Below are positions 3,401-20,228 of a stretch of 64,000 nt of DNA, one piece after another. The DNA is taken from contig NC_135258.1 of NCBI RefSeq assembly GCF_964204865.1, positions 10,540,001 to 10,604,000 on the forward strand, in the 5' to 3' direction. The translations under genes were made by a program, and so were the position numbers. The notes under the pieces were generated by a model. It was given only the letters and a program-made list of their open reading frames with translations. It was not told where the DNA came from and searched no databases. Every line of letters starts with the position of its first letter. Within the stretch, counting starts at the first letter, position 1. The stretch is from Styela clava (lineage: Eukaryota).

Positions 3401-6400
3401 TATTATGGTATGTCCAAGTCTACATGATCAATTTTAATAACACTATTTATTACTGCACTAATATAACCTGCAATACTTCAATGCGAAACTAATTTGAGTA
3501 AAAGTTTTCAGGACATTGCATTTGACTCTTCCAAATAATCTATCAAAATCAATTCCACAATTATGACAAAATCGCTTATTAAATCATGCCATAGTAATAA
3601 CAGAGTTGCACATTTCTTTAATACTCATAGAAGCAAAAGCAGAAGTGTACAGCATTTGAACAAGACATAAAATTGGATTTGCTGTGCTCCAATCAGCATA
3701 GTACTACAGACATTTAGCATTTGACCGAAGCCACACAAACCCATTTGTGAATATTCTTAGTTTGTCAATGTTCAATCATTAGGTATAGGATAAATGTGGA
3801 ACACGGAATTGACTGAAATAAATGCTTAGTTAGATGGTTTACTAAAACCAAGTGCATTTGGGCAATATCTGCAACTTTAGTAACCTAAATTAGCTGACCT
3901 AACTGAATAAATTGTTTTCAATCGAAGGTGACAAATGTCAACATCGCACAACAACTGATACTTGTGCTTCAAATCCATGTCACGAAAGTTCAACTTGTGT
4001 AGAAGATGATAATTCATATAGATGTATTTGCCCTGAATCAAGAACTGGAACACAGTGTACTCGATGTAAGTGTTTCAAGTCTTTTTTTAGCAAACTTTTA
4101 TATGAAAATAAGCTACGGTAAGTTAATTTAATAGTATAACAAGTTTTTAAACGGTTAACTATGCAAAAAAATGTATTCTAATGATAAAAGAATAAGCCTA
4201 GAAAAGAATAGAATAATATAGTGTTGCTAAAGTTATAAAAGCATATTAATGATATGTTGCAGGTGGTACCACTGCACATATTCCAAGTATAACTCAAGGT
4301 TTCTAAGCCCTTACACCATAAATCAAATCTGGTCCAACATTGTAATCGATTTGTTTCCTCTATCTAAAGAGCTATTACAATATCACCATGTTTTTGTTGT
4401 TTTCAGTGGTTGCAGATTTGCCATTACCATCTACAATGGAGCCATCTTATATGCCAATGTTTGCTGGTGACTCGTATATCCAACGACCATCATTAGTTGG
4501 TGTCGGTACAAAACTTGATATTGAGATTGTATTCTATACATTCCAGTTAGAAGGTATGATTTTGGCCTTAGTGTCCAGATTGGTTATTTTAAATCAGCAT
4601 ATATATTTGCCTCCATTACTTCGAAAGTAGACTCGTGAATTTGACTCTGGCATACTTTATGAAATTTTAATATTAGATACCACACTCTCTTTATTATAGA
4701 CATTAGACATGCTATTATCCACATCATTTTAATGTATAGTATTTGAGACTATGCTATAAGGGACACATTCTCTATTTTTATGAGATACAAGTGTTTTGAT
4801 ACCATATCTTTAAATAGGAATTACAAGTCAAGTCTTCAAGTCTTGACTAACAAAGATAAATGACGTTGAAACACTATTTGAGTAAAGCTTTTCTAATTTA
4901 TAATAAACTCTAATGAAACATCAATTTTCCTCTTTGAATTATTCAATAATTGTGCTGATATAAAATTTTAGATTGTTGTTTTTTTTTTCGACAGGACTGC
5001 TCTTTTATAATGCACAATCAGATTCGGGCAAAGGAGACTTTGTTGCATTAAATTTAAGAGAGGGATATCTTGAATTTATGTATGATTTGGGTGAAGGACC
5101 GGCAATCATAAAGTAAGTACATTATGCACTACCCTGCCTTGGTAATACTAATATTTAATTAAATTCTTGTTATGATTATCAAAACGTGGTTGTTTCATCG
5201 TTCGTAAAATCTTTTGACCATTTTGTTCATCAAACATTTTTTTATATATTCAGGAGCACTGTCAAGGTTTCACTAAATGAATGGCATGTTGCAAAATTGT
5301 CTCGCATTATGAAGATTGGTGATCTTAAATTGGATGATGGACCCATCGTTAAAGGAGTATCACCGGTACAATGCTAATATTAAATATAAAATAAGCCTCT
5401 TTTGGACACTTCTTTTGTTTAAACATTTTATACATTTACTTTTCATGCTTGCTGAAGAGATCAAAGGCAAAGGTTTGTTGAATAGTGGTTTGATTTACTA
5501 CAATCTGATTACTGTATGTGATATAAGAGTCAATTTCGTGTTGTCCAATAGTACCATAACTATTCAATTTAATTAATATTTTCATTTATCTTTTGCACAC
5601 GTATTTTCAACTGAGTGAAATCTAATTATTCACCATAAATAACTTCGATATATACATGAATTCATGACTTTCTGTTAGTTTTGATGTTTATTTAAAACTT
5701 TTCACAGCACCGCCATTCCCAACTTAACCTGGGAAGACCATTATACATTGGCTCAGTTCCTGAATCTGTGACTGTTCCTCCAAGAACTCACATAACGACT
5801 GGACTTATGGGAGCCATTCAAAAGGTAGATAATGTGTCTTGTTGTTCAGTTAAACTATATTGATAATAACCTGTACCAATATGTGGTAAAACAGTCACCA
5901 TTAATTTACATCAAACAAAAGTAATTCGAGAATTAAAAATAAATTTTGTTTCATAGATAAGGAAATAAAGATTTTATAAATAAACATGATTATCTAAAAA
6001 TGTGTAGACTGATTGATACCTTGGTAGTTGAACGACTTGATATCCGAACAATTCGATAGTCGACCAAAAATATCTGGTTGATGACGTCATTGTGCACAAA
6101 AATCAATCCCATTGATCCCACAGAAATTTGCTCAAACAGTTACTGATATCAAATTTTTAATGTTTATCTTTATTAGTTTTAATCTTTATTATGCACACAT
6201 TTACATACTTATTATTGTTTAGTTACACGTTTTGTTAATATTTTCGGTATTTTGAAATGCGTAAGAACAAACTAAAAATATTACCATCGATTTTTATGGT
6301 GCAAAAAAGTTTTGATTCTCCAACAAGTCGGCAGTCGAACACTAATCCTGAACAAATTATGTTCGACTACCGGGGTATCATGGTATTTGTAAAATCAAAT

Positions 6401-9394
6401 TTAGTATCCAATATTCATTTAATGACTTCTCTTTGTTTATTCAAATTGAACTGTTAATTTAGAATCTAATAACTTTTACATCATTATGAAATCCATCTAA
6501 GGTTAGCTATGAGCTCTCATCCATTTACTGTTAGTGTGCCAACCTGACAAAATTTCATGCTCAAAATTTTCATTTCCCAAGAACTTCAGTTCTGTGGAAT
6601 TCACTACATCACACCGGTAGTTGTTTTCCTGGTCATATTGATATGAATCAGTGTTCACTAACACTGATTTCTACACTATAATTCGCTAGACTGTCAGTAG
6701 CTCTCAGTACTTCAGGGGTCACCTATAATTTCGATCAGAGATCAATCTCCTTTATTTTACAGTGTGTGACATTTATTTGAGCAAATTTTATCATATATTA
6801 TAGTTTGTTGTGAATGATGTTGAACTTCCGCGATCCCTTGCTGGAGAAAATTCAGAATCGTATCACATTCAAGCTTTCAATGGTCATGCCTGCTACAGAC
6901 AACCTTGTAACAATAATGGAGTCTGTGTACCAGTCCTTGGAAATTTTACCTGCACATGCAAAACTGGATATTCAGGGCAACTTTGTCAAAAAGGTTTGAT
7001 GAATTGTTTGATATTCATTTGGCATTTTAACATTTTACTTGAGGTTCATCAAAAATATGTCTTAGAGTTCTGTAATTAGAATGGTTGTGCATTTTCTGTT
7101 ATTTACATTTATCAGTACATAAATTTGAACATTTTTTTAATTCCCAGTTGAAAAGCCTGAAGAAATTCCAATGCTTCAAGACTCGACACCGCATGCAGTA
7201 TTTTTTGATGGAAGGGTCAAGGCACAATATAATAACTTCATCACTAGGAGGTAATTCATTTGATTATTTACTGCCGTTTATTTTTTTCATTGTACTCAGG
7301 TGATAAGATGCAGTTGCTTCAGTTATGGTCAGTTTATAAACTATGAAGTTTTCTTTAATAATTTATGGATAATTTTTGTATGCTAATTACTATCCTCATT
7401 ATTAAAAGTTGGTGTATTTATATTGTTCAATTTGTTTTGCTTTCAAAAGTGGAGAATCTGAAAAGATCATGAAGAAGTAAGAATATATTGTGTTGTTCAT
7501 TCTAATTTATGTGATTGATATACTGGTACTACTATATATGGGTAAAGCTATTTCATTTTCCGAAGTACCTTGTTGTTAAGATTTTTGTCATGCGAAATAG
7601 TTTTAAAAGTAATTATTGTATAAATTACATAATGTTTTGGGTACCTCACTTCAAATTGCAGGATACCCACTTCGACATGTAATTTCTCACATTGTTTTAT
7701 TTTGTAACAGGGTCAACTCATTAAAAAGCAACCACTTCGAACTTCAGTTGAAAACCACAGCTCACCATGGTTTAATATTTTATGATGGCAAAGCAACAAA
7801 ACGTGGCGATTACATAGCTTTGTCAGTTAGTTATGGCAGACTGCATTTAACTTTTGATCTTGGATCCGGTCCAGCCAATATTGTATCTGATTTAATGGTA
7901 AATGATGGGCTATGGAAAACTGTTAAAATTGTCAGGTAAGCTTAGGAATTAGGATACTTGTGTTTGTGTCTTACCCAATGATCGTTACCTACTGTTGTCT
8001 GTGCACAAGAATAAATTTAGATATATCTTGTTTTACATCATTGGTTGTCTACGACTTTTGTATCAGTAATCTACTCACTTCAGTTGACAGCTTGCAACTT
8101 TGCATAAAAATAGAAGGACTAAGAATTTCATATTTTACGACTTGTCTACGACTTTTGTATCAGTAATCTACTCACTTCAGTTGAAAGCTTGCAACTTTGC
8201 ATGAAAATAGAAGGACAAAGAATTTCATATTTTACTTGCCCAGCTATTGTCGAAGTTCTCAATGTTCTAATGATGATTTCTGCTAGAATAAATACAAAAA
8301 TGAGTAAAATAGATAGAAGTTTTGGGTTCCTTATTCTCAAAAACTTGCGGACTATACAAAATTACATTTATGAGAGGAAAAAGACATCATTCCATTTTTT
8401 GATGTGTTGGTTTTGCTATATTTGTAAATTATCAAACACATTTTCATTATTTTGCAGAAATGAACATCGAGCATCTCTACAAATAGAAGAAGGAACTCCT
8501 AAATTAGCATCTGCTCCACAACTCACAAAATGGCTAAATACTGAAGGAATGTTATGGCTTGGTGAGTGCACTGGAGTTTTAGCACATTTTCTGACATTCT
8601 TTTATAGTTATTACACAAAGAGTTCTTATATTCTAGAACAGGGTTACTCAACTGGTGGACAGCAGTCCGAATCCGGACCTTTGGAGTATTTGATTCGGAC
8701 TGCACCTAATTCTTTATTTTGATCATTAACCAAACTTTTGAAGTTTCATTTTATAAAATGACTTTTCTTGTTTTGAATATATCCGAAAAGAACTATATTA
8801 CCATAATAAACAATCTCGATTAGCTGATACTCATTAGCCGGTCGAGGAAGTGCGCATTTAAGGATGCCGAAATATAATTTCTGGAAACCTCGGACGGCCG
8901 GACCCAAATAATTTTAAAGTTTTGTATGCGGATCTTCTGTTCTAGAATGCGGTTTTGGTCTGTTTGCTATCACAAAATATTAGGTATTTTTCTTAATGTA
9001 ACATTTAACTAAACCGAAATATGTTGCATAGCAAGAAAGATGAATATTCACTATTTGCAATTTTATTTAACCTCTTAGTCGGAAATGATCAATTTAATTT
9101 AGCTGTTTAGTTTAATTTGATCTGCAGGGATTTGATCGGAATATACTAAATAAAATATGATAGCAAAAATCGATTCTTGATACCTTGTCATTCTTACCTT
9201 GAATTTAATTTCTATTCCAACTTGCAGGTGGTTGTGAAGCTGAATACATGCCACCTAGGCATCGAGGACTGACCAAGTCTTTTTATATGGGATTTGAAGG
9301 ATGCATCCGTAGATTCCGTATTGATGGAAATCTTTTACAATTACGAGAAGATGTGTTGAACAGACCCGGGTTAGCCACATGCCAAGACCGGTGA
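439..9394 (+). CDS. AGRN: Agrin orthologue, 3' portion (LG1-EGF-EGF-LG2-EGF-LG3); 5' exons lie upstream of the window
   Basis: GT-AG exons joining in frame: (439-525, 1107-1154 linker exons, less certain), 1542-1734, 2122-2230, 2570-2676, 3084-3209, 3286-3407, 3928-4065, 4407-4553, 4995-5112, 5254-5365, 5708-5824, 6804-6993, 7148-7250, 7711-7935, 8458-8561, 9228-9394 (TGA). LG3 reads [53 protein letters not shown] and ends [31 protein letters not shown]. These match agrin hallmarks (SNHFEL, GKATxRxDYxAL, TxGxLWLGG) better than pikachurin or perlecan. Confidence 0.9.
5458..5472 (+). CDS. AGRN: Candidate 15-nt agrin y-site microexon encoding RSKAK
   Basis: tacatttacttttcaTGCtTGCtgaAG|AGA TCA AAG GCA AAG|GTttgt. 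Phase 0-0, between ...KGVSP and HRHSQLNL, the position of vertebrate KSRK. The donor gtttgt is also used at 3210. Confidence 0.72.
6014..6380. mobile_element. MITE in agrin intron
   Basis: Terminal inverted repeats tgataccttggtagttgaac ... gttcgactaccggggtatca, with internal repeated tcgac/gaac motifs. Confidence 0.65.
7450..7476 (+). CDS. AGRN: Candidate 27-nt agrin z-site microexon ([16 protein letters not shown] instead of ITRR-VNS)
   Basis: tttgtttTGCtttcaaaAG|T GGA GAA TCT GAA AAG ATC ATG AAG AA|GTAAGA. Phase 2-2, no stop, strong donor, located in the intron just before SNHFEL. Confidence 0.7.
8045..8235. repeat. Direct tandem duplication of ~97 bp in agrin intron
   Basis: Two near-identical copies starting ttgtctacgacttttgtatcagtaatctactcacttcagttga at ~8045 and ~8142. 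Confidence 0.9.
8639..8939. mobile_element. Non-autonomous hAT-type MITE
   Basis: Ends cagggtt...cttctg, flanked by a perfect 8-bp duplication ttctagaa (8631-8638 and 8940-8947). Confidence 0.75.
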
Positions 9395-14462: not shown

Positions 14463-16083
14463 GTATATTATATATACTATATAGTATACCAAGCTTTTGT
14501 ATGTTTATTCAATCATAATATATCGTTTGCCCCTCTGACAACTTATCTGAACTGATTATAGCGGCGGATGCTTACAAAACTTTTTTTACAAATCCAATGC
14601 GTTCATAAAATACAAAGACATACCAAAGTAATTAGATAAAAATCAATTTTCAGTTTTGAAAAACTTGTTTAATTTACGGTACACACGAATATTCTTCTTC
14701 TCAGTCAATCTCTACTGTGCTTCCTAACAATGAGCACTTGATCTTTGGATTACAATTTATATTTCGTTAGTAGTGCGTAACCGACAACAAAATTTCACAC
14801 TGCGTATTCTTCAAAAATGGTTTGACTATATTTTTCAGCGCTCGTTTTGGGATTTTGCTGAGGCCGGAGATTCCGACGGTAAGCCAGCCTTGCCGATGAT
14901 TAGAATGCAGTCAATTATGTACGGTGTACATACTTCTACAAAATATCAAAACAAGTTATGGAATATGTTAATCCTAGATGAAAAATATTTTCAACAATTG
15001 AAAGTGGTTATTAATATGTAGTGATGTATATCAATCTACACACTATTAGTAGCTTTGTTGCTCTGAATTTCATGAGGCGCCATATTCTCACCGTCATAAC
15101 GATGGAAATGTACAGTTATAATATTTACATCTGTTGGATAATATTCTGACCGAAAAAATTAATTTTATAACGATTGAGCAAAACATATTTCTGATAAACT
15201 CCTAAACACCACACACGATAAGGATAAATGTACTATATAATTCGCAGAATTATAACGAGGTTATAGTATAATATTATATTATCCAGACATTGTTTACCAA
15301 ATACTTTTGTAATCATTTTGATACTGATGGCGAATAGTTCGAGAAAATATTCTATGGAAATTCTCGAGTGTTTTATCGTATAAATAAAGCCTTGTTGTTG
15401 TTGAAAATATTTTATCCAGACCGAGATTAGCATCTCTCAGAATTTAATTTGTTTGAGATTCTGCGAAAGTATCAGTAACGTAGCCTACATAGTTCACGGG
15501 ATAGTAATCGTCAGCAAGACTGGCTTATTTCCGATAACTTCAACTTCAGCGAAAAATATTGTTGTGAAACCATTTTCGGACAATGCGCGTTATGGAATTT
15601 TGTTGTCAGCTATGTACATTGAGCAACAGGGTATAAATTAAAACGAGAACACATTTTGCTCAGTGTTGGGAAGCACAGTAGAAAATAACTGAGAAGAATG
15701 ATATTTGTGTATTTTGTGAATTTTCTTTATGTTTTTTCAAAATATGAATTGATTTTATATATTTGACGATTGAATAAATACATTTCCAAAAAATCGCAAA
15801 CAATTGTTGGCCTCAAATAGCAATATCATAGCAAGATAGAAGTTCAAGATTTTATAAAATTATAGGAACAACCAGATATATAGGGCTTTTGTTTTCACAA
15901 TAATTTTGCGCAGCTCTGTTATTGCAGCGTTTTGATAAGAATCCTGTGCGTAATATGAGAAGAACCCTTTTCTGTATTAGTGATTTTCTAATATGCTGAT
16001 TTGTAAGAGCAACGCATTCAACTTTCTATGCCGTTACTAGGTATAAGTACGATTTGTTGCCAGGAAGTGAAAATTAAGTAAGA

Positions 16084-19000
16084 ATGATAAAACTACAATC
16101 GACTTCACTGGCTTTCTTTGCCATTATATGTATCACCACGGCGCAGAAATACGATGTGTATCTCACTGCTCAACTGGATGCATATTGCCGAATGCAGGCT
16201 ACTGAACATAACGAGATCGTAGATTACAACGCAAGAATACTTCAAGGTCGGATGGGAAAGGCTGGACTTCGGGGACCTCCCGGACATGTTAATTATACAC
16301 TGCTTGAAGAAATGATAAATAGAAAAGTTGCAGGTTGGTTTTCAAATTAAGAGAAAAGTTATAACTTTAGATTGCAGTAAGTCAAAAAAATCTAATTTCC
16401 AACTCACTGTCGCTGTTAGAAATTGGACGAATTAAAATATAAAGATAAAAAATATAAAGATAAAAAATTTAAAAACTGAAATTTAAACAAAAAAAAAGAC
16501 ATTTAAAAATTAACAAAGGATTACAAATAATTTTTTGTTTTTTGTACAGAGAAAATAGACGAACTGGAAGCCGAACTCGTGAATTCCGTAGATGATATTA
16601 AAAACACCTTGAAAACACTAAAAGAAGACAATGAGACACAACCGGGTAAATACAAATTGACGTCAATAGGTTTTTAAATCGAATTTCCAAAGGTTGATAG
16701 GAAACATGCAGAAGTTCGGTAATTGGCGCATTGTGCTAAGCGTTAGTAACACACTTGCCATCGAACCTCTGATTGCCGTTCGTATGTTTGAATTCCGTGA
16801 GGATAAGAATGCCCGACGACAATTTCACTAGACCAGCCGTCACTTGATTGTTCACGTAACCGCTGATTGGTCACGGATTCCCCCATCAAGTACATACATA
16901 TGAAACAACTGCCTGGTTAACTATACACATACCCTGCATCAGCGTTTCCCAACTTTTTTGGTCGCGGACTATTTTCTCACCAGAGAAAATATTTTCGGAC
17001 TTAACGTGCGTTAATTTTGTAATTGAACTCTGAGTGAAGAAGAAAAATAAAATAAAAAACAACGGAATTTTGCCGAAGTCAGTTTATTATCCACATTTAC
17101 AAATTCCAATGGGAACCATAGCGATGGTGCTCCGCCATTAGGAACTGCTCGCTCTGACAAATTTGAAATATATTACGCGATCACTGTCGACGATTAGCTG
17201 AGTAAAATTATAGGATAGAATTTGAAGCTGAAAAGTTCCAAATAAATTCATTATTATCTTTCGTGTCGGCTTTAATTATCTTTATTGTTCTCGTAAAATT
17301 GAAAAATTAACTATATCTTTACGGCTGACTTCTGGATTCGCTGTCTTTTTTCTGTTTGTATTTTTATATATGTATTTTTGCTTCAAAACATAACCTATGA
17401 AATATTGTTACTGCGTATCTGTTAAGATCTGATAGAATTCACTTGATGGTATTTCATGACACAAATACAACACTCAACTTTATATAAGAATTTTTAACTA
17501 AGCAAAAGGTTCGTGTAGGTGTAGACTCGTGTATTTGTCAGAATTCCGCAAGTGCGTTGTGCAATCCAATCGTTTGATTCAGAGAGGTGAGATTTACGTG
17601 TCATGTCCAAGTCACGTGTTACCAGGTATTCTAATGGTTAAATGTTAGAGTATTTTGCCCAGCCCTACTCAGTAATCGATAACTATTGACTCGATTAATT
17701 AATTTTTATGTGAATAAACTTGCCTTCTATGTTTTATTTGAATACTAACGTAGGTGGTTCCCAAACTTTTTTGACCCTCGCCCCCTTAAAGTATTTTATA
17801 CAACTTCAACGCCCCCCGGCACTACAAAAAATATAAAGTCAGTAACAAATATATTACAGACCCAATAAGAAGACAAATCATAGTTTATAGTGTTTTTTAA
17901 TGAGATGGATGAGCTCGGTGTTCTTCAGCGAGTTTTTTATTATATTTATCTAAAATTACCCCGTTTACTGATAGAAAGGCGATTTCGTTGTTTTGATAGC
18001 AATAGTAGCACGACTGAAAACCCCCTTTTTCACCATATAAGAGGTCGGAAATGAAAGAAACCAGGGTTCTACCTCCTCAAAAACTGCCGTGTACTCTTGC
18101 CTTATAGCATTTCACTCCCTAAATTCACCCCATTTCACATTAAAATAATAAAAACAAAGTTAATTTTCCCAAACTTATAATAATAATTTTTGTACATCTA
18201 ATTCATTCCTACAGCCTGATGACCTGCACCAAAATACTTCGGAAAAGTTCATCCCCGATTCCTCATCCTACCACGGCCTCCAGTCCGATCACCAGTCCAT
18301 AGGATTAATCAGCCATTTGTTTTTGGATTCATGGACTCGGATGTGGAAGAAGCCGTGACCGACTATTGGCTACGGCCCAGGGGTCGGCAAAGATTATGTT
18401 GCTCGCGGGACAAAATTTAGGGTTGCTAGTCTTAAAGATATTTGCGGGTCGAATATATTTTTTGAAAGTTTAAAACGGGACAGCGCGAAAACTGGGACAA
18501 TTCGTGAACACAACCCAGTCGTTTTATAAAAAAATATTACAATGACATTCAATGTGACACTGTCTTGTTGCTGTATCACGCTTGATAGCTTTACGACGCC
18601 ACGATTGGAACATTTTCTAAATGGGCATCACTAATCCCAGTTCTTTGCTTATTCTATGTAATTTTCATTTTCGAAAATAATTGTTCGCACAAATATGTAC
18701 TTCCAAACATCGAAGTGAATATTTTTGCATGGTTTCTGAAATTTTGAAAAAGATTTACTTTAAGAAGATACGTCCTTACAAAAATAAAGCAGTGATGAAT
18801 CTCTCGAATAGAATATGAATTTTATTTCCTTATTGCAAGAATTCTTTTCGATACTTTTAAATAACAGATTGTTGAATGGTATGAATTAGAATGATAGTTT
18901 GAAACAAATATCCCATTTTACAGGCAACAACTCGCGAAACCACTCTTAAACTAAGCACCGAAAATTTAAAAATGGTAAAGTATACAAAGAATTCTCCGCG

Positions 19001-20228
19001 GTCAAAGGTCGGAGGAAGGTCCATTCAGTGAATCGTTTCGCGTGTGATAATCGCCCACATGATTCAAGCCTGCGAGTGCACACAGAGTACAGAATCAAGT
19101 GCACGATGCGCCGAACAAAAGCAGATTGCGCGAAATCGCCCCCCTATCGCCCCCTTCGACTTTTTCGCCCCCCTCTGTGTCATCTTCGCCCACCGGGGGG
19201 CGATATCGCCCACTTTGGGAATCACTGGGCCAAATCGTAACTTGGCTGGTACTGTTAATGTTAGTGACCTGGTAATATACTACTACATAACTTTCTAAAA
19301 CGGTTTGCTCGTTGAGGACTCATTTAAACGCTCCGCGGACTCATTTGAGACCGCGGACTCGGGTTGGGAAACACTGCCCTACAGGGATTGGTAATCGGAC
19401 AAGAGGCCGTGGTTCGCGAATTGATAAAGCCCCCATTAATATTGCAATATTGTCATGGGTGTTTACAACGTATTACAGAATCTTGCGATGGCGTGATATA
19501 CAAGAAGAAATGTTATTTAGTTATAGTTCAAAAGATGACTCTCGATAAAGCCAAGACCCTATGCAGATCTTTTAACGGAAAAATGGCAGATATTTACTCT
19601 CTGCAACATTATGATAAAGTAATGGGATATATGTCACAACACATGGATGCTCACCACTACGAAATTCTTCTCGGAATGAGCTTCAATCCAACGGTTTGTT
19701 ATGATATTGTAGTGTTTTGTTAGAATGTATAGAAGAAGCAGATTGGGGAATGCGAATTCCTAAAAATTTGCAGTTAGTTGTTTTTGATTTTTTTTTCGAA
19801 ATAGTTATCTTATAATGCCGTCTTCGAAAACCGATAAACAACATAGTGAATATTTCAGTTTTTATGCAAGCCACAAATTATGACATCAACAAAATTTCAC
19901 ATATAAAATAGCTTCTCTCTTCCACATAATACCGTGTATAATACTGTACACATTGCTTAACTTAGGAGAGTATGTTTATTCCATTGCTGGGACAAATGTA
20001 GTAATATAGGCTCATAAATAACACAGCACTTCTACACAGACCTCAGAGGTTCGTTTGGATGACGGAAGACCAGCTCCCTACGTTAACTGGTTGAGCGGAT
20101 GGCCATCTTTAATTTCTATCAAAACACAAATGTCAGTTCGTGTTAATAACGATGCATCACTCTCATATAAAGGAATGTGGAATCAAGAAAATTCCTACAA
20201 GTTTCATGGCGTTCTTTGTGAAATATGA
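16084..20228 (+). CDS. Secreted collectin-like protein, copy A (signal peptide, short Gly-X-Y stretch, coiled-coil neck, C-type lectin domain)
   Basis: Exons 16084-16333, 16550-16645, 19479-19693, 20040-20228 splice in frame. Motifs: GRMGKAGLRGPPG; KIDELEAELVNSVDDIKNTLKTL; CDGVIYKKKCYL..AKTLC..GKMADI; NWLSGWP..GMWN..HGVLCEI*. AATAAA at 20613 and 20682. Confidence 0.88.
16940..19376. mobile_element. hAT MITE inserted into a SINE in lectin A intron 2, carrying nested elements
   Basis: TIRs cagcgtttcccaac / gttgggaaacactg, TSD ccctgcat/ccctacag. The shorter version in copy B is 24727-25649 with TSD ccctgcat/ccctacat. Confidence 0.8.
17752..19227 (-). mobile_element. Nested hAT relics specific to lectin copy A
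   Basis: Ends aggtggttcccaaact / tttgggaatcactg. Minus-strand relics FPTSYMVxKGFS..KQRNRL (~17950-18060) and SMFGSTYLCEQLFSKMK (~18660-18720). Another TIR caggggtcggcaa at 18378. Confidence 0.72.

Follow-up and report, generated by a model that had tools for sequence, protein, structure and literature searches.

The agrin gene of the tunicate Styela clava raises the question of whether the two very short exons at its y and z sites are controlled by one splicing programme, and whether such a programme would depend on Nova or on an Srrm protein with an eMIC domain. The window, which is the whole stretch of 64,000 nt that was analysed (contig G000:C10), holds the 3′ end of this gene in its first 9.4 kb on the + strand, with domains in the order LG1-EGF-EGF-LG2-EGF-LG3. 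A protein search matched 'agrin-like [Styela clava]' and a cluster of nine proteins was found to fit the window exons, while the LG3 exon alone gave no match in a protein search limited to 2000 residues. Mapping of protein model X1 resulted in 46 agrin exons over approximately 45 kb, and the Pfam domains of Styela agrin comprise NtA, Kazal, laminin-EGF, EGF and three LG domains. The constitutive exons on either side of the two sites were placed by this exon map and by RNA contigs:

5254..5365, + strand: constitutive LG2 exon ending in ...KGVSP, phase 0 (spliced RNA contigs in four of four runs; exon map)
5708..5824, + strand: constitutive LG2 exon, HRHSQLNLG... (RNA; exon map)
7148..7250, + strand: constitutive exon ending in YNNFITR, phase 2, which includes a constitutive N-F-I motif (RNA; exon map)
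7711..7935, + strand: constitutive LG3 exon (RNA; exon map)

The candidate microexons lie in the introns between them, each behind a short acceptor region:

5446..5457, + strand: two TGC (starts at -12 and -8) and the weak AAG acceptor of y (sequence; acceptor matrix)
5458..5472, + strand: y microexon, 15 nt, phase 0, RSKAK, donor AAG/GTTTGT (NCBI models; top score among the 13 frame-preserving AG..GT candidates of its own intron)
7438..7449, + strand: TGC (start at -12) and the weak AAG acceptor of z (sequence; acceptor matrix)
7450..7476, + strand: z microexon, 27 nt, phase 2, GESEKIMK, donor GAA/GTAAGA, without N-x-I/V/F (NCBI models; top score among the 24 frame-preserving AG..GT candidates of its own intron)

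Both had been put forward in the initial annotation as the y and z microexons of agrin, and this identification was borne out, as each is present in NCBI models, keeps the reading frame and lies at the corresponding chordate site. For y this site follows G-x-S-P in LG2, where the short basic insert RSKAK aligns with the position of KSRK, and for z it falls after the last EGF-linker exon and ahead of the LG3 exon. As a cassette exon y was found in three of nine Styela models (P0285, P0287 and P0288), corresponding to three of four from the older release and none of five from the current one. A read-through form is present in P0283 (RSKAKVC-stop, TGA at 5479-5481), with the current model X5 using the y acceptor and reading through. 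Exon z is included in six of the eight models that extend to the site; z is left out of the agrin model of a close relative (P0013), a z-minus form that is uninformative on the z Asn. Models with the y and z inserts exist both on this contig and in the older release, which was counted in favour of eMIC control. All four combinations of y and z occur among the gene models and were taken as uninformative on linkage. The annotated inclusion presumably rests on RNA-seq junctions, which we take to be the practice of the NCBI pipeline. As the two exons are already in the public annotation, the novelty lies in the comparison and not in the exons. A 54-nt variant of y (5460-5513) was rejected due to weak sites. 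It should also be noted that the Styela X5 and Ciona X9 models stop soon after the y insert and lack LG3 (proteins P0283, P0295 and P0153).

The RNA showed skipping of both exons, with junctions from 5365 to 5708 and from 7250 to 7711 in four of four runs (three studies). No inclusion junction of y or z was found among these four runs, in which assembled contigs drop rare forms and cannot show absence of inclusion. The sample consists of four of nine RNA-like runs, in the form of contigs of unlabelled tissue, none of them recorded as RNA. A further product of the z intron was detected:

7251..7689, + strand: probable lariat loop formed by the complete z intron, with the skipped z exon inside (back-joint from 7688/7689 to 7251 in two of four runs)

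The back-joint was present in runs X1 and X2, both of one study, with T read for A7689 in X2, and its depth was approximately 14-17% of that of the mRNA contig. The circle looks like a stable lariat loop, and this is its likely nature. Pieces of the z intron were present in all four RNA runs, and none were found for bin 5386-5566 of the y intron. The X2 allele carries 10 listed substitutions and one insertion, all within 7280-7356 with none listed for 7357-7688, and these variants destroy the CAG at 7297-7299 of a 28-nt pseudo-exon (7300-7327). Despite its strong score this pseudo-exon was rejected, given its in-frame stop, an upstream intron of 49 nt against 76 nt for the shortest real one, and the loss of its AG in the X2 allele. 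A 3-nt exon at 7409-7411 was rejected for weak sites, and the idea that the z intron encodes a structured RNA or a snoRNA was rejected with a folding z-score of 0.05 and a single sub-threshold Rfam match (25 bits against 50).

With regard to the 3′ splice sites, a TGC close upstream of both exons and the use of AAG acceptors in place of CAG or TAG had been described as common features, and both descriptions proved correct. TGC starts at 5446 and 5450 for y (-12 and -8) and at 7438 for z (-12), and the AAG acceptors lie at 5455-5457 and 7447-7449, whereas the reference set, consisting of the gene's 42 constitutive acceptors as placed by means of the annotated protein, comprises 25 CAG, 15 TAG and 2 AAG. 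The difference in AAG use, 2/42 against both microexons, gives Fisher p=0.006, and that for TGC within -20..-7, found at 5/42 constitutive acceptors, gives p=0.022, in each case with two exons only and a test chosen post hoc. The combination of AAG and TGC was found at 0/42, which was counted in favour of eMIC control. Scored with a matrix built from the same gene's 42 acceptors, y and z reach 2.9 and 1.4 bits, where the median is 7.2, placing them above only 7 and 4 of the 42, respectively; their donors are average in strength. Within 44 agrin introns 1167 pseudo-microexons were counted, 67 of them with both AAG and TGC. Frame-preserving ones with at least 9 bits number 39, and only three of these have TGC at -20..-7: two use the y acceptor, paired with different donors, and one uses that of z, the 9-bit threshold having been fixed after the fact and the matrix itself penalising G.

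Other parts of the acceptor regions are less distinctive. The U-tract, which had also been listed as a shared element, is present as a slight excess, with T fractions of 0.56 and 0.59 against 0.45 +/- 0.10 at -40..-13, only about 1 to 1.4 SD above. The AG-exclusion zones of 60 nt (y) and 39 nt (z) are of ordinary length, the median being 41.5, and no UCUC-rich tract was found upstream of y or z, where just isolated TCTT and CTCT words occur; both results were counted against eMIC control. The Styela pair thus resembles the neural microexons dependent on SRRM3/4 (eMIC) in its sizes of 15 and 27 nt, within the limit of 30 nt for such exons, in keeping frame, in being alternatively spliced (gene models include the exons and RNA skips them), in the UGC near a weak 3′ splice site and in the presence of the factor in the genome. 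It differs from them in having neither the long AG-exclusion zone nor the UCUC tract at either exon, and eMIC dependence is putative.

The factor was identified on G000:C19, where PF15230 (SRRM_C, the eMIC domain) scores 30.7 bits against a cut-off of 27 and runs on as SARKRPIPY in the next exon across a phase-2 intron; a protein search with the eMIC exon, limited to 2000 residues, gave no match. The eMIC exons (G000:C19:12893204-12894700, L011) and a cwf21-bearing Srrm2 gene (L014, near 9.404 Mb of the contig carrying the window) are separate genes on different chromosomes. This split is like that of vertebrate Srrm3/4 and Srrm2 and unlike the single Srrm234 described for non-vertebrates, with a second, diverged eMIC exon on C10 being possible.

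Published data, cited here by accession from the parts available, connect agrin with this factor. A 12-nt agrn exon, likely Y judging by its length, shows a neural dPSI of 90, a dPSI of -21.7 on loss of zebrafish srrm3/4, which is the lowest value among three comparisons, and one of +36.1 when the amphioxus eMIC was added to human cells (PMC12626424), and the 12-nt Agrn exon of mouse is only mildly SRRM4-dependent (PMC11648925). No row for an agrin Z exon was found in the zebrafish tables searched (PMC12626424). UGC occurs in around three quarters of SRRM3/4 microexons and is helpful, not strictly required (bioRxiv 2024.09.17.613571), and the eMIC code has been described, with strong CUAAY branch sites marking fly eMIC exons (bioRxiv 2021.02.24.432780). 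The available parts of PMC4387716 and PMC13326754 hold nothing bearing on the case. The earlier suggestion that a UGC beside an AAG acceptor points to Srrm was judged right: an eMIC gene is present in the genome, and the vertebrate 12-nt exon, likely Y, responds to Srrm3/4.

It is given slightly better than an even chance that both microexons are included in neurons through an Srrm3/4-type eMIC protein at the UGC 12 nt upstream of a weak AAG. Taken singly, eMIC action would be fairly probable at y and evenly balanced at z. The weak AAG acceptors in short introns would favour skipping, in keeping with the weak sites and the skipping observed, and action of the eMIC protein at the UGC at -12 may then promote exon recognition in neurons. 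It is plausible that the Styela pair works like eMIC-type microexons at agrin's established y and z positions, with eMIC control as a candidate.

Alternative explanations were weighed against this, one being the complete grammar of the initial annotation, in which a CTAAT word forms a branch-like element common to both exons. An identical 8-mer is indeed present upstream of both, with TGCTAAT at 5372 and 7381:

5371..5378, + strand: ATGCTAAT, A5377 being the 12th intron base (sequence)
7380..7387, + strand: ATGCTAAT, with a putative branch A at -64 of z (sequence)

If it were a functional element, whether a distal branch, an SF1 site or a decoy 3′ splice signal, it could couple y and z, and the strong CUAAY sites of fly eMIC exons, the AAG found approximately 20 nt after each copy and the presence of a common CTRAY-containing 7-mer in just 1.8% of random intron pairs speak for it. 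However, the putative branch A lies at different positions, -81 for y (92-nt intron) and -64 for z, and an AG intervenes in both cases approximately 20 nt on (5394-5395 and 7407-7408). Being only 12 nt into the intron, A5377 is an implausible branch site for the y acceptor, and the AG at 7407-7408 makes a branch role of the z copy doubtful. There are also 21 copies of TGCTAAT in 164 kb, and in 36% of random intron pairs the two members have an equally rare 7-mer in common. Upstream of y and z, weaker yUnAy sites were found at -13 to -30. Both CTAAT words probably fall outside any shared code, and their coupling of the two exons is scarcely credible. Of the single grammar that had been proposed, TGC and AAG are retained, whereas the CTAAT branch falls away, the U-tract is slight and YCAY, as described next, is at background. 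That z is driven by Nova through downstream YCAYs as in Ciona, with y regulated separately and the UGC incidental at z, was considered unlikely. The sequence in question is as follows:

7477..7710, + strand: z downstream intron with six scattered YCAY and branch A7689, 22 nt from the acceptor (sequence; RNA back-joint)

In Ciona, Nova is both necessary and sufficient for inclusion of Z6/Z5, which need 18 downstream YCAY with none elsewhere in the region, although only two YCAY per enhancer are needed (PMC12445529), and a Nova gene with a KH1 near-identical to that of Ciona is present on G000:C2. The count of six YCAY downstream of z given earlier is correct (7497, 7553, 7588, 7646, 7667 and 7687), but the modest excess attributed to it is not distinguishable from background (3.9 expected, p=0.19), so that no enrichment supports a Nova signal. 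The motifs are spaced 20-60 nt apart, and one of them is the branch site itself (TCAC at 7687, A7689). At least six YCAY in the first 234 nt were found in 5/34 agrin introns, and the y downstream intron also has six. Nova is probably less important at Styela z than in Ciona.

Inclusion by relief of an upstream repressor, either Muscleblind bound to YGCY or PTB bound to the U-tract, in place of an eMIC enhancer was judged improbable. MBNL binds YGCY. Upstream, a stretch of 291 nt holds seven YGCY where 2.2 are expected (p=0.008), and downstream there are none in 469 nt against an expectation of 3.6 (p=0.03); this count is post hoc and contains the same TGCs, every upstream TGC being also a YGCY. 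Human Y and Z are jointly repressed by PTBP1 (PMC10139058), but CU-rich PTB words are scarce here. Even less probable is that y, z or both are infrequent products of unregulated splicing that entered the annotation. The lack of inclusion in the four RNA runs (0/4), the absence of a cassette y from the five current models (0/5) and the loss of the functional motif from the z peptide would agree with such noise. Against it, y and z lie exactly at the chordate sites, keep frame and are the best scorers of their introns, and inserts at the y site are also found in Ciona, Phallusia and amphioxus models. The confinement of the X2 allele variants to 7280-7356 points the same way, weakly, since these variants are linked and so give weak evidence on constraint.

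Returning to the exons as eMIC-type candidates, the peptide of z was compared with those of other chordates. The z-site peptides are xLTNEIP in vertebrates, PNDFRE in Ciona, ESNSIREQ in amphioxus and GESEKIMK in Styela, of which only the last is without Asn, and a search of the z-exon peptide for N-x-I/V/F found the motif absent. Binding of Lrp4 has been tied to N-x-I (PMC6966886), and N-x-F is found in Ciona Z6 and N-x-I in amphioxus (PMC12445529). The only open in-frame candidates bearing a motif were 7610-7633 and 7601-7633 (...N-Y-I...), scoring -5.4 and -7.5 bits and used by no model; as a second, N-x-I-type z exon they were rejected, with acceptor and donor scores below nearly all constitutive sites. 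The Lrp4 gene on G000:C19 keeps the propeller-1 motifs of rat and Ciona in a comparison by eye, exon by exon, with the figure's pocket-residue colours not visible. The z insert would lengthen the LG3 loop without canonical engagement of Lrp4 and, since it is without the Asn of N-x-I, may bind Lrp4 poorly or in another way. Judged by its sequence, which has neither the motif nor a YCAY cluster, Styela z is not a canonical Nova-dependent, Lrp4-activating Z exon. The initial annotation did not mention this absence of N-x-I/V/F from z, the published Nova control of the Ciona Z exons or the presence of both exons in public models.

Agrin Z6/Z5 of Ciona robusta (PMC12445529) and Styela z have in common the same intron, phase 2 and an optional microexon, with Nova and Lrp4 present and an upstream constitutive N-x-I/V motif kept (N-F-I). 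Styela differs in having one exon of 27 nt instead of two (18 and 15 nt), in being without N-x-I/V/F and in having 6 YCAY instead of 18. A further comparison is with the amphioxus Z exon (ESNSIREQ), a single z-site exon with TGC, AAG acceptor and GTAAG donor, in which E-S-x-x-I resembles ESEKI by eye; it differs in keeping N-S-I where Styela has E-K-I and in its CU-rich tract, of which there is none in Styela. The TGC of the amphioxus exon, at -16, its CU tract and its AAG acceptor were read by eye from S2 Fig of PMC12445529 and were counted in favour of eMIC control. The available main text of that paper makes no mention of a Y exon, Srrm, UGC or Styela. A survey of literature by titles and abstract openings, which covered few subscription papers, found nothing on a tunicate y exon or on Styela agrin splicing; the supplements of the two preprints, which may list agrin events, lay outside it.

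At the y site, inserts were found in all the chordate groups compared. The vertebrate Y exon (12 nt, KSRK, in 18/66 pattern-matched sites) confers heparin binding (PMC6966886), and the 15-nt Styela exon is likewise short, basic and placed after G-x-S-P in LG2, its heparin binding and neural inclusion being putative. By analogy with KSRK, inclusion of y would likely give LG2 a basic heparin-binding patch. Ciona has KAIPPVKNK in 7/11 checked models reaching the site (one of them read-through), Phallusia a longer basic insert (one model) and amphioxus the neutral GG(P/Q)SNNV(P/L)E (10/19). Within the amphioxus insert (P0267-P0280) lies N-N-V, which is of the N-x-V type. In Ciona, the extension RQWYWKH matches RKWYMKH, the insert of Phallusia, which hints at a longer or second y segment in these two species. 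It is tentatively suggested, as a possibility given clearly less than even weight, that a basic y microexon predates vertebrates (Styela, Ciona, Phallusia) and that Styela z has been rewired: the N-x-I ligand for Lrp4 and the cluster of Nova sites would both have been lost, eMIC alone would control the exon, and AChR would cluster in the absence of a canonical Z motif even though the Lrp4 propeller looks intact. The basic y inserts of three tunicates would date the heparin-binding Y switch to a time before vertebrates arose, contrary to a statement of 2010 that invertebrate agrins are without the KSRK motif (PMC2874008, Fig. S7 legend). The Nova-agrin Z-Lrp4 switch has lately been called chordate-conserved from Ciona and amphioxus, and Styela, a second tunicate lineage in which the sole credible z exon is without motif or YCAY cluster, offers a natural test of the reach of this conservation. 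The two short introns also make a cheap minigene for distinguishing eMIC from Nova.

Several further observations were made in the window and its surroundings. Additional alternative agrin exons are one of 87 nt (439-525, 29 aa), which also has a TGC at -11, and one of 108 nt (36 aa) approximately 16.6 kb upstream of the window; at places similar to this pair, Ciona agrin has alternative exons that are 28 and 36 aa long. A tandem duplication with a period of 97 (8045-8235) lies in the intron after the first LG3 exon, and the last agrin intron contains a high-copy repeat (8644-8940) with RNA contig depths of 600-2200 and many variants. Downstream of agrin, at approximately 16078-19900, ORFs inspected by eye indicate a gene whose start resembles a signal peptide and which includes a collagen-like G-x-x stretch as well as an exon resembling a C-type lectin.
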